Translations under genes and position numbers: made by a program
Shown: positions 6,558 to 40,296 of the stretch, piece after piece
Numbering within the stretch: the first letter of the stretch is position 1
How the letters are laid out: the number at the start of each line of letters is the position of its first letter
NCBI GenBank assembly: GCA_951406725.2
Contig: OX597833.1
Coordinates: forward strand, 47,182,001-47,246,000
DNA from: Octopus vulgaris
Taxonomy: Eukaryota
DNA: 64,000 nt
Direction: 5' to 3'
Notes under the pieces: model-generated
What the model saw: the letters and a program-made list of their open reading frames with translations, nothing else
Database searches by the model: none
What the model was told of the DNA's origin: nothing

Positions 6558-7978
6558 AATGATAATAATAATAATAATGATAATAATAATAATAATAATA
6601 ATAATAATAATAATAATAATAATAATAATAAAATATTGGATGATTGTATAATTATATGCGCTAAGAATTCAAATCCCTCCTAGGTCAACTTAGCCTTTCT
6701 TCTTCTCGGTGTCAGTAAAATAAAGAACCAGTTCACAATAGTAAATTGGCGGAATTGTTAGAGCATTGGACGAGATACCTTGTCGTATTCGTTCCAACTC
6801 TGTACGATCTGAGGTCATTACCCGCTTTCACATCACCACCTAGTCATTGGGTACCTTTTGCAAATCTTACTCAGTTGCATGAATTCGAATCAGCATCCCG
6901 TTTTTAGCGTAAATTCCTCCATTCTCTATTCTTGGGAATCTCTGACAGTGGCATAAAAGCTGTGTGGCTTAGTGGTTAGGATGTTGCACTCAAGATCGCA
7001 TGGTTGTGGTTTCAATTCCTGGACTGAGCAATATGTTGTGTTCTGTAGCAAAACACTTCGTTTCACGTTGCGCCAGTCCACTCAACGGGCAAAAATGAGT
7101 AATCCAGCGACGGACCAGTGCCTCAACAAGAGAGTGAGTATATACGCCACAGAATCCGGGAAACCGGTCTGAAGAGTCTATGGCTCAGGAAGGACCTTTG
7201 ATCCTGACTGTGGTGTAGCTAGAATGTGTAAGGCGGCGAGCTGGCAGAACCGTTAGCGTGCCAGGTGAAATTCTTAGCGGTATTTCGCCTGCCGTTACGT
7301 TCTAAGTTCAAATTCCGCCGAGGTCGACTTTGCCTTTCATCCTTTCGGGGTCGATTAAATAAGAACCAGTTACGCACTGGGGTCGATGTAATCGACTTAA
7401 TTCCCTTGTCGGTCCTTGTTTGTCCCCTCTATGTTTAGCTCCTTGTGGGCAATAAAGAAATGAGAATGTGTACGATCTGGAATAGCCTTTGAGTTCACAG
7501 CTCCCTTCTTCTCCGGGACCCCAAGCCTATACAGGGTTATACGGCAGACCCCAAAGTATCACTATTGATAAAAGTATCGCCCGGCTGAACTGTCCCTCCT
7601 CGCTCCACCTCCTATACTACTCTCTTCTGAAAACTATCGGCTCAAGGATGCTAAACCCCCACTCTCTCTCTCTTCTAAGCAAATAAAATAAAAGCGGTTG
7701 GCATAGCTGTGTATAATAGCAATGAGCTGTCTGATATACATATCAATGAAAGCAACCTACATTTAGTGAATGTTGTGATATTTGATGACACCAACATATA
7801 TTTATGTATACTACTCGGGAACCCGACTCTGCTATCCACCTCACTGTACACACAATTTCATAACAAATACTTCTTTTTTCCCCGCGCTACTTTACCTCTG
7901 TATTCTTTGCTTCATATTTTCTTCTTTCGTCTTTATTCTTCTCCCATTGGCTTCTTTTATTTATATTCTATATTCTTT

Positions 7979-8100
7979 ACGGAGATGTACTTGCATAGCA
8001 TGTGATTTGATCTGAGATCGTGTGCTGAAACGAAAACAATTGCAGCGTGGAAGGTGTTTGTAAGCCATTTAAGAAAACACCTTCCGCGCTGCAATTGTGG
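7979..8100. mobile_element. Family P1, short copy
   Basis: Same extension and arm start, short inverted segment ending gctgcaattgt; 12-bp direct repeat tctatattcttt. Confidence 0.75.
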
Positions 8101-8368
8101 TCTATATTCTTTCTTTTCTCTTTTCCCTCTTCTACTTCTTTCTTTCTATTTTTTTTCTCCATGGGGTCAATCTGTTCTGTTACCACTTGATCTAACCCTG
8201 CCAAAGTTTCTAACCAGAACCCAAATCGTATTATATGCTACACTTACTGGGGACATGTTAATTTTTCTAGTTGATTTCTACTTTGTTAGGAAACCTTTAT
8301 CTCAAACCGGACTCACTTTGTTTGGGGTGGTGATATTGCTTTAATATATAGCACTAACCTCAAGGTAT

Positions 8369-8601
8369 AAGGCGGCGAGCTGGCAGAAACGTTAGCACGC
8401 CGGGCGAAATGCGTAGCCGTATTTCGTCTGCCGTTACGTTCTGAGTTCAAATTCCGCCGAGGTTGACTTTGCCTTTCATCCTTTCGGGGTCGATAAATTA
8501 AGTACCAGTTACCCACTGGGGTCGATATAATCGACTTAATCCGTTTTTCTGTCCTTGTTAGTCCTCCCTGTGTTTAGCCCTTTCTGGGTAGTAAAGAAAT
8601 A
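8369..8601 (+). mobile_element. SINE family S2 (Meta-domain-like), representative full copy
   Basis: aaggcggcgagctggcagaa head, B-box gagttcaaattcc, central gactttgcctttcatcctttcggggtcgataaattaagtaccag. Other copies near 1820, 3073(-), 7230, 10142, 18345-18857(-, trimer), 21725, 38198, 38925, 44740, 54255(-), 55278(-). Confidence 0.9.
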
Positions 8602-36627: not shown

Positions 36628-39600
36628 AGTTTGATCTCCAGCTGTGCATTGTATCCTTAAGCAAGACACTCTATTTCTTGTTGCTCCAGTCCACTCAGCT
36701 AGCAAAAATGAGTAGTACTTGTAATTCAAAGAGTCCAGCCTTGTCACATCTGGTGTGTTACACCGAATCTCCTTGAGAAGTATATTAAGGGCATGTATAT
36801 CTGTGGAGTGCTCAGCCACTTGCACGTTAATTTCATGAGCAGGCTTGATCTATTGACTGGATCATGTGGAACGCTTGTTATTGTAGCTGAATATAGTACC
36901 ATTGGACTTGTGTGTGACAGTGATGCTTATTTACGATCATCATGTGTTTTCATGAAAGACTGGAAACAAAGGACACTGCTTGTAAGACGGTGACACTTGT
37001 TTACAACTATCATGCAATACCGAGATGGAGAAGCAGAAACATGTACAAGCACACACACATACACACACACACACACACACACACACACACACACACACAA
37101 ACACACACAAACACACACACAAACGCACACACAGACACACACACACACATACACAAACACACACACAAACACACACACAGGCAAATACAAACACACACAC
37201 ACAAACACACACACACACACAAACATAAACACACACACACACATGCATGCAAATTCTCATTTAAACCTATCATTATAAGTACATTAGGCTATGTACCTAT
37301 ATATTTACACTAAAACCTAGAAACACTACGTTTTGTGAAGAAAGAGCAAAAAAAAAAAACTGATGCAGATTCTCCGATTCCAATCTATTAGTGGTACAGT
37401 GAAAATTTGTAAGATATTCCAAAGATTCTCCACTTGAGATTTTTTTAGGTGAAGAGATGCACACACTTGGGTGTATGCATTGGCAGTTCAACCAACACAC
37501 CAACTGAACCACATATTTACAAACATTGGGAATTCTCTTGACTCAAAATGTCTTCTTGCTTTGCTAGCAACCAGCTAGAAATTTTCTTAAATATTTTTAT
37601 TTATGCACCCTTTTCAAGCTTAGCCAGGCTCATGGGCCCGGTTTCCTGGTTTCTATGGCATATGTGTTCCCTCCAGCTGGACGGGACGCCAGTCCATTGC
37701 AGCGTTACTCAAGAAACAGGAAGAGAGAGTGAGAGAAAGTTGTGGCAAAAGAGTACAACAGGGGTCACCACCACCCCCTGCCGGAGCCTCGTGGGGCTTT
37801 AGGTGTTTTTTTCTCAATAAACACACACAACGCCTGGTCTGGCAATCGAAACCACAATCCTCCGACCACAAGTCCACTGCCCTAACCACTGGGCCATTGC
37901 ACCTCCACGAACTCTCTTAAGAAGAACCTAAAATAAAACTCAAAGAAAAATCATTAATGCATACATTTGCATGCATACATTCATTCAACAGGCTTCTTTC
38001 TGTTTCCATCTACCAAATCTACTCACAAGGCTTTAGTCAAACCCCAGCACTATAGCTGAAGACACTTACCCAAAATATTGAATTTTTTTTTTTTTTTTAT
38101 CACCCTGAACTATATTTCCCATTTTGAGAGTTGCTACTGATACAACATATCAATTAGTTTGTTCTCTAGTCATCTTCAGGTAAAACACTCTGAACTGAAG
38201 GCGGTGAGCTGGCAGAAATGTTAGCACACCAGGCGAAATGCTTAGTGGTATTTCATCTGTCTCTATGTTCTGAGTTCGAATTCTGCTGAGGTCAACTTTG
38301 CCTTTCATCTTTTCTGGGTTGATAAATTAAGTACCAGTTATGCACTAAGGTTGATATAATCGACTTAATCTGTTTGCCTGTCCTTGTTTGTCCTCTCTGT
38401 GTTTAGCCCCTTGTGGGTAGTAAAGAAATAGGTATTTCATCTGTCTCTACATTTTGAGTTCAAATTCTGCTGAGGTCAACTTTGCCTTTCATCCTTTCGG
38501 GGTCAATAAATTAAGTACCAGTTGCGTACTTGAGTCAATCTAATCAACTGGCTCCATCCTGAAAAATTTCGGGCCTTGTGCCTGGAGTAGAAAAGAACAC
38601 TCTCTGAACTGGTCAAAACAGTGTTTTAGCAACACATCCAAGATAAAGAAAACAGTTAGCAAAACAAACACCAGATCATAAGGATAAAATTCATGTTAGG
38701 AACTCAAGTCAGAAATATACAAGGCACCCATGCCAGTGACACATAATAAAAGGCACATGTGCTGGTGACACATAAAAGGCACTCGTGCTGGTGACATGTA
38801 AAAGGCTCCTGTGTCACTGACATGTTTAGAGGTACCTGTGCTGGTGACACATTAAGGGCATCTGTGCCAGTGATGGGTAAAAGGCATCCAGTACACCCTG
38901 TGGAGCAGTTGGTATTAGGAAGGGTTCAAATTCTGCTGAGGTCAACTTTGCCTTTCATCCTTTCGGGGTCGATAAATTAAGTACCAGTTACACACTGGGG
39001 TCGATGTAATTGACTTACTATCTATGTCTGTCCTTGTTTGTCCCCTCTATGTTTAGCCCCTTGTGGGTAATAAAGAAATAGGTATTAGGAAGGGCATCCA
39101 GCTATAGAAACCAAGCCAAAACAAGACTGGAGCCTGGTGCTGCTCTCTGATTTACCAGTTCAAGTCAAACTGTCTAACCCATGACAGCACTGAAAATGGA
39201 TACTAAATGATGATGATGATGATGAGTACAGCATCACCATGGGAGGCTTTATTGGCAGCTGGCTGATGATGTAAAAGGGTGGATGCAAATTCAACCTATA
39301 CACCACCTGCTGAGAACCCTCCCCTGAGAACCCTTCCCCACCAGCCACCTAAAAGCAATCACAGTGGTGAGTGCTTCTCAAGGAAATCACCAGGGGTCGT
39401 TCATTGACCTGTTGCTATAAGGAGGAGAACAGTTCTCCAAACTGCTGCCATTTCTCCCCTTCTTGAGATTGCTTTTCACTTTAGCAGCCAGATCGTCTTC
39501 ATGTCATACATACCCAGCCATAATTCCAGAAACATCTCACATTATGAATAACTTAGGGAATTGTATTTGCATTGCAATATACTTAAAACATAATTGTGTG

Positions 39601-39977
39601 TGTGTGTGAGCACATGTGTGTATGTGTGTGTGTGAAACTATAAGTGTATAACTAATACATTGTGTTAGAATGTACACGCATTTTATACTCACTACATTTT
39701 TGGCGTTCTCTTGTTTTCAGATTTTTATTGTTTTAATATTATTAGCCCCGCCTTAGCGAAGGTAGAGGTATTGTTTTCAGTCATGTTTGTTTGTTTGTTT
39801 GTTGGTTGGTTGGTTTTGTCCATGGACAAAATATCTCAAGAACTGCGGGATGGATTCAGGATGAAACTTTCAGGAATGTTTGGTCTGGTGACTAGCACCA
39901 ACTGATTAGATTTTGGGATCGATCTGGTACCGGACAAGGATTCTGGATTATTTATATTTACTTTACTTTACATGGAA

Positions 39978-40269
39978 TTATGGAGATGTACTCGCATAGC
40001 AAGTGATTTGATCTGAGATCGTGTGCTGAAACGAAAACAATTGCAGCGTGGAAGGTGTTTATAAGCCATTTAAAGAAACACACAAAAGCTGTTCGATTCA
40101 CTTCAACATTTAAATTTAATTTGTCAAAATATTTTCGTCGCTTTAAGATCGCGACGTGTTCACTGACAAAAATCCGTGATGCAGCAAATTAAACTTAAAT
40201 GTCGAAGTGAATCGAATGGCTTTTGTGTGTTTCTTAAATGGCTTACAAACACCTTCCACGCTGCAATTG
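39978..40269. mobile_element. Family P1, third copy
   Basis: Extension + full arm + truncated inverted arm ending gctgcaattg; 13-bp direct repeat tttactttacatg. Confidence 0.78.
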
Positions 40270-40296
40270 TTTACTTTACATGATTACGATCTTAGA

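Follow-up and report, generated by a model that had tools for sequence, protein, structure and literature searches.

What kind of element leaves short inserts made of two inverted arms and a tail at one end only? The question is raised by a 64,000-bp stretch of Octopus vulgaris DNA (GenBank assembly GCA_951406725.2, contig OX597833.1, positions 47,182,001 to 47,246,000; hereafter, the window). An original prediction, made from the letters of this stretch, had described three copies of such an insert as a non-coding, ribozyme-bearing retroelement mobilised in trans, with the inverted pseudo-long terminal repeat (pLTR) and tail of Penelope-like elements (PLEs). Our answer, which we hold with good confidence, is that the inserts are 5′-truncated ends of an octopus PLE, likely produced by a reverse transcriptase (RT)-endonuclease that nicks both target strands and primes at two fixed internal sites of its RNA. 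The anatomy of the copies, their duplications, the start of an open reading frame (ORF) and the presence of the ribozyme motif are established directly. Published work is cited by accession.

Exactly three copies of the unit are present in the window, as agreed by BLAST and by scans for the extension motif and the arm end: copy A (7979-8098), copy B (10890-11245) and copy C (39975-40270), with B on the strand opposite to A and C. The prolific character claimed in the original prediction thus corresponds to 3 copies in 64 kb. A 21-nt motif of the extension, allowing up to 3 mismatches, had 3 matches in the window and none in 100 shuffles, while the 11-nt arm end was found 6 times, always exact and twice per copy. 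In all three copies an inverted arm stands head to head with a sense arm, and a one-sided extension, henceforth the tail, follows (56 nt to the end common to all copies, 56-62 nt over the set). The outer end of the inverted arm is identical in the three copies, and the length of this arm varies (24 nt in A, 142 nt in B and 86 nt in C). The long arms are 95-99% identical among copies, and those of B and C begin at one common 9-mer (11026-11034; 40178-40186), so that the variable inversion points of the original prediction hold for the inverted arm and not for the start of the long arms of B and C. Copy A is shortened on both arms; the arms of copy C are asymmetric and leave 64 nt unpaired in the middle. 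No direct (head-to-tail) pLTR tandem, one of the arrangements that had been suggested for checking, was found by BLAST among the three copies of the window.

The tail of copy C extends 6 nt further than the common end (39975-39980), and these bases encode the next residues of the homologous protein; at the level of sequence, the match with the Octopus sinensis protein described below shows that they come from the element. The copies form hairpins of 63-300 nt, and the long inverted arms fold near-perfectly; the folding energy of the whole unit is not unusual (z −0.79). A peculiarity of copy B is found at its junction (11016-11060), where 15 inserted nt repeat the junction itself exactly in reverse complement. 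This suggests a template switch on the hairpin, the alternative being a near-duplication encoded by the source.

Direct repeats flank each copy, with lengths of 12 bp in A, 16 bp in B and 13 bp in C. When random pairs of flanks with matched geometry were drawn, at least 12 nt were shared in 26 of 5000 draws, and in 7 of 4044 once low-complexity flanks were left out. Because the element end overlaps 4 of the 16 bp of B and 1 of the 13 bp of C, the duplication itself measures 12-16 bp in B and 12-13 bp in C, a refinement of the variable length of 12-16 bp initially proposed. In copy A, 2 additional nt (8099-8100) separate the element from the repeat. The flanks of the copies are 70-90% AT, compared with 62.5% for the window, which is rich in microsatellites and short repeats. 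Altogether, the three copies, their common extension, the fixed arm end and the direct repeats were confirmed as originally described.

The description of the unit as non-coding did not survive. A frame that begins with an ATG at 11157 crosses the fixed arm end (+33) and continues along the tail, the arm containing the first 11 codons and the tail codons 12 to 30-32. None of the three copies interrupts this frame, and its first 30-32 residues agree with an octopus protein at 28-30 positions. When the 30-residue peptide of the window was searched against 1.84 billion representatives, a single match was obtained, protein P0003 of Octopus bimaculoides (E 2.2e-5, residues 1-26 of both), and a search with P0003 led in turn to two longer, overlapping proteins, P0004 of O. 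sinensis and P0005 of O. vulgaris. The window peptide is identical to the N-terminus of P0004 at 29 of 30 positions. With Pfam, P0005 had no match and P0003 none of significance. No match to P0005 was found by sequence search of the PDB, and the family profile yielded weak matches to bacterial RTs; in the Atlas, P0003 gave a low-score lead only and P0005 led to eukaryotic clusters of DUF8422. Another long open frame across the unit (P0002, 67 aa) was rejected as a coding frame because it lacks homologs among longer proteins (24 candidates) and is frameshifted in copy C.

A separate observation concerns P0004 (LOC115227545), in which the PLE N-terminus (~222 aa) is fused to part of a methyltransferase (PrmA in Pfam, residues 243-298). 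The fusion is probably a chimeric gene model and possibly an exonised insert.

A search with P0005 retrieved 29 proteins of 680-1222 aa (P0006-P0034; best E 3.9e-71). All 29 contain a YxDD-type motif and a DKS motif; in 25 of them a GIY-YIG-type motif lies downstream of the RT, and a CX2-5CxxC linker is likewise present in 25. The link with the octopus proteins is given by residues 25-222 of P0004, which align with the N-terminus of the full-length P0006 (E 6e-25 within the 29). A structural model of P0006 has a mean pLDDT of 87, and its top three PDB matches in a Foldseek search are telomerase RTs; this result is consistent with placement among PLEs, but it is not a tree. The domain order of canonical PLEs, RT followed by a C-terminal GIY-YIG (PMC8557442), is also that of the relatives.

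In the 26 of 29 proteins that allowed a measurement, RT motifs A and B lie 125-133 aa apart, a value that belongs to the relatives and not to the octopus element itself. Our counts in Fig. S1 of PMC8557442 were 58-61 aa for four rows (Penelope, Poseidon, Nematis and Neptune); one Naiad had 85 aa and human telomerase 116, and canonical PLEs are said there to lack this insertion in the fingers. The spacing in the relatives is therefore ~65-70 aa above the canonical rows counted and near telomerase length. With the Nematis and Neptune clades (PMC8557442) the relatives share the C-terminal GIY-YIG-type domain and the CX2-5CxxC linker, which is short and, by eye, closest to the Nematis rows of Fig. 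S2. However, they have DKS instead of DKG (29 of 29) and the long A-B spacing instead of 58-61 aa. As judged from these sequences, the octopus element would be filed in neither Neptune nor Nematis, given the short spacing and DKG expected of those clades. The Naiad and Chlamys groups, with an N-terminal endonuclease and no canonical hammerhead, were also discarded, as the endonuclease follows the RT in 25 of 29 relatives and a hammerhead motif is present.

That motif, predicted as a ribozyme in the original description, was found in copies B and C. When the arm is read with the extension at its 3′ side, it is predicted to fold as a minimal type I hammerhead: stem I has 7 bp, one additional nucleotide follows A9, stem II has 5 bp with a closing G-C pair, and helix III is a palindrome (numbering as in the hammerhead papers cited). 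In its core, G3 and C8 replace C3 and G8. A descriptor accepting any Watson-Crick 3:8 pair was run over both strands of the 64 kb and gave 3 matches, all of them in these copies (two in B, one in C), with none in 20,000 shuffles of the unit or in 20 shuffles of the window. The truncated copy A has no hammerhead. Minimum free energy folding recovers stems I and II. An Rfam scan of the whole window, with E values up to 1, returned 111 matches and no hammerhead among them; matches to MIR5048 and mir-802 on copy B were dismissed, as they fall far under the gathering scores and reflect the palindrome. All 13 base pairs are invariant among the three near-identical hammerheads, and covariation is hence uninformative. 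The inverted arm of copy C ends 3 nt from the predicted cut, but this is one case among four variable ends and was not counted as evidence of cleavage.

The octopus motif matches the features listed for the minimal type I hammerheads of metazoan PLEs (PMC4209133), from which it departs in its G3:C8 core (the reported natural variant being U3:A8), in a stem I of 7 bp and in a G at position 9.1 in copy B, where the consensus is H. A U3:A8 pair is a natural variant of the hammerhead core (PMC3088659), and in an engineered PLE ribozyme the double change C3G/G8C partly restores cleavage (PMC11167929). A natural G3:C8 hammerhead was not found in a limited literature search, which is weak evidence of absence.

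Comparison with known elements indicates that the octopus element has the features of an endonuclease-bearing (EN+) PLE that can be tested at the DNA level. In rotifer PLEs the pLTR carries 12 codons, the tail extends to codon 22, the inverted pLTR is shorter and duplications measure 8-10 bp (PMC3846280). Like the canonical EN+ elements Pen2a_Av of Adineta vaga (PMC3846280) and PAc/Poseidon of Anolis (PMC11167929), the octopus element has a direct pLTR and, head to head with it, a shorter inverted one, the first 11-12 codons inside the pLTR, a one-sided tail that continues the ORF, a hammerhead near the ORF start, an AT-rich target and a variable duplication. It differs in that its duplications are 12-16 bp, compared with 8-10 bp in the rotifer examples, in that the predicted hammerhead lies entirely upstream of the ATG with the cut at −57 (the PAc cut is at +26; PMC11167929), and in that the copies lack an ORF body between the repeats. 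The layout agrees with those of PMC3846280 and PMC8557442 and, together with the chain of protein homology, bears out the proposal of an inverted pLTR plus tail.

As this architecture is already published, the finding is a further octopus member of a known element type. The family may even be present in an existing repeat library, since 190 PLE families, amounting to 6.83% of the genome, have been reported in O. vulgaris (PMC13282606). The supplement of PMC8557442 contains none of three motifs of the element, DNA or peptide, that were looked for there, and the element's motifs are likewise absent from that of PMC13282606, a file that does not contain the repeat library.

How might such inserts be formed? 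With the purified protein of the anole PLE, for which a dimer is predicted, AT-rich DNA is nicked and extended on both strands, and copying begins inside the RNA at two sites that delimit the tail (PMC11167929). By analogy, staggered nicks 12-16 nt apart in AT-rich DNA would give rise to the target duplication. One cDNA would start near +89 to +95 (ATG = +1), which is the tail end, and the opposite-strand cDNA at +33, the fixed arm end, both running toward the 5′ end of the RNA. In copies B and C one of them would extend to a shared stop near −116, which is probably where the transcript begins, while the other would stop at variable points, and the two cDNAs would be joined head to head at short microhomologies. 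That B and C share the 9-mer opening their sense arms fits run-off at the transcript start. A separate non-autonomous family is not required, because internal priming of an autonomous RNA at its 5′-most pLTR-ORF junction would yield products of ~200 nt.

Several observations weigh against this interpretation. No RT or endonuclease sequence of this PLE family lies next to any copy or elsewhere in the window, where copies adjoining an ORF for RT and GIY-YIG had been suggested as a check. The octopus proteins retrieved all end before the RT core, and the connection with RT and endonuclease is therefore by homology only, through relatives that are ~37% identical. Pfam gives weak support for those relatives (RVT_1 was detected in 5 of 29, GIY-YIG in 3 of 29 and both in one protein, every match being under the curated cut-offs), and the Foldseek TM-scores are low (0.26-0.29 by query), with other polymerases close behind. 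The hammerhead descriptor was composed only after the motif had been noticed. The tail, 56-62 nt, exceeds the 30-40 nt reported for canonical PLEs. The common 5′ start is seen in two copies, and the 15-nt insert allows the junction of B to be parsed in two ways. Lastly, the anole PLE primes in vitro without homology to the target (PMC11167929), whereas several ends described here show 1-7 nt of identity between target and element.

One alternative, which we regard as unlikely, accepts the same PLE but attributes the inversion to self-priming by fold-back, either on an antisense template or else on the first cDNA, and not to two target-primed cDNAs. Self-priming of this kind has been proposed for palindromic head-to-head junctions (PMC3846280), and the junction of copy B, with its palindrome and an insert complementary to its own junction, would be in line with it. 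However, fold-back of a single cDNA leaves by itself unexplained why the inverted arm ends at +33 in all three copies, with 1-7 nt of target identity in B and C, and the asymmetric arms of C, with their unpaired middle, are also difficult to accommodate.

Another, quite unlikely in our opinion, is a dedicated non-autonomous PLE derivative of ~210 nt, akin to a retrozyme or a short interspersed nuclear element (SINE), with master copies of its own and moved in trans by PLE protein. All three copies are short and two of them begin at the same point; moreover, rotifer pLTRs suffice for mobilisation in trans (PMC3846280), and a 2026 preprint connects animal retrozymes with pLTRs (10.64898/2026.07.22.740005). 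Against this stand the truncation of copy A on both arms, the conservation of an intact frame that matches the octopus protein in every copy, and the lack of head-to-tail copies, the defining trait of retrozymes (PMC7229834). The octopus element resembles non-LTR retrozymes in being short, low in GC and PLE-related and in its type I hammerhead; it differs from them in its inverted layout with a tail, in the ORF start it carries and in lacking direct tandem repeats (PMC7229834; 10.64898/2026.07.22.740005). Classification as a non-LTR retrozyme, which are head-to-tail and non-coding, was discarded on both counts (0 tandems in 3 copies; ORF start present). A DDE-type miniature inverted-repeat transposable element (MITE), or a foldback DNA element with a one-sided extension, is scarcely credible: the long inverted arms do form near-perfect hairpins, but the duplications are variable and at least 12 bp, the ends are asymmetric with a tail on one side, and the arms carry the start of an RT-family ORF as well as a hammerhead motif, so that the original argument against a DDE MITE stands.

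Beyond truncated PLE ends left by two-strand priming, a more ambitious and clearly more tentative proposal is that the element represents an unnamed PLE lineage, combining a C-terminal GIY-YIG with an RT that has a telomerase-length fingers insertion and with a natural G3:C8 hammerhead, and that its hairpin copies record two-strand, two-site priming on the 5′ end of an autonomous RNA. The features of the three copies are listed in Table 1.

Table 1. Coordinates of the three copies and their parts in the window
Feature	Position	Strand	Remarks
Copy A target-site duplication, tail side	7967..7978		12 bp; final 2 nt also fit continuation of the element
Copy A tail (3′ extension)	7979..8035	-	Codons 12-30 of the PLE ORF
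Copy A sense pLTR arm	8036..8074	-	5′ cut just above the ATG at 8068; without ribozyme
Copy A inverted arm, 24 nt	8075..8098	+	Junction with near 6-nt microhomology and a one-base slip
Copy A target-site duplication, inverted side	8101..8112		2 nt of untemplated appearance (8099-8100) precede it
Copy B target-site duplication, inverted side	10878..10893		16 bp; final 4 common with the element end
Copy B inverted arm, 142 nt	10890..11031	-	
Predicted minimal type I hammerhead, B inverted arm	10972..11019	-	G3 at 11012, H17 at 10979; loop II 3 nt shorter
Copy B sense pLTR arm	11026..11189	+	Starts with the 9-mer of C; 15-nt insert 11046-11060 reproduces 11016-11030 exactly in reverse complement
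Predicted minimal type I hammerhead, B sense arm	11057..11107	+	Predicted cut after 11100
PLE ORF start, ATG + 30 codons	11157..11248	+	Spans arm end and tail
Copy B tail, 56 nt	11190..11245	+	Next 3 nt common with the duplication
Copy B target-site duplication, tail side	11246..11261		
Copy C target-site duplication, tail side, 13 bp	39962..39974		
Copy C tail, 62 nt	39975..40036	-	6 nt longer than that of B; coding to codon 32
Copy C sense pLTR arm and ORF start	40037..40186	-	ATG at 40069
Predicted minimal type I hammerhead, C	40120..40170	-	G3 at 40163, H17 at 40127
Copy C inverted arm, 86 nt	40185..40270	+	Ends 3 nt short of the predicted ribozyme cut
Copy C target-site duplication, inverted side	40270..40282		First nt common with the element end

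Other repeats were detected in the window. A separate MITE-like family of ~420 bp, with terminal inverted repeats of ~30 bp, is found at 649-1078, 15540-15973, 17663-18082, 27665-28281, 29822-30239 and 34083-34510, with a weaker member at 19556-20073. A large cluster of short interspersed repeats, SINE-like, comprises 42 linked loci (for example, 8332-8640, 18329-18858 and 38194-38596); they may resemble octopus SINEs, and ARAGORN found no tRNA. Open frames at 63165-63629 (-), 40297-40845 (-), 52820-53221 (-), 28797-29276 (-) and 26391-26750 (+) appear by eye to be remnants of mariner transposase or of proteins from long interspersed nuclear elements, and Pfam detected nothing in any of the five; one of these frames begins 15 nt beyond the duplication of copy C. 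An internally repeated region of 1.9 kb is located at 30697-32581.

The main outcome is the annotation of an octopus PLE family, one that could be mistaken for a MITE by repeat pipelines. Short copies flanked by duplications are clean records of the way in which PLEs acquire their inverted pLTRs and tails, and each copy, if transcribed, would yield long double-stranded RNA. The long fingers insertion of the relatives bears on the kinship between PLE and telomerase RTs. With regard to the ribozyme, counts of hammerheads obtained with descriptors fixed on C3:G8 would be too low because such descriptors miss a natural G3:C8 core; if the proposal of an unnamed lineage is true, a natural hammerhead of this type is one that standard searches miss.

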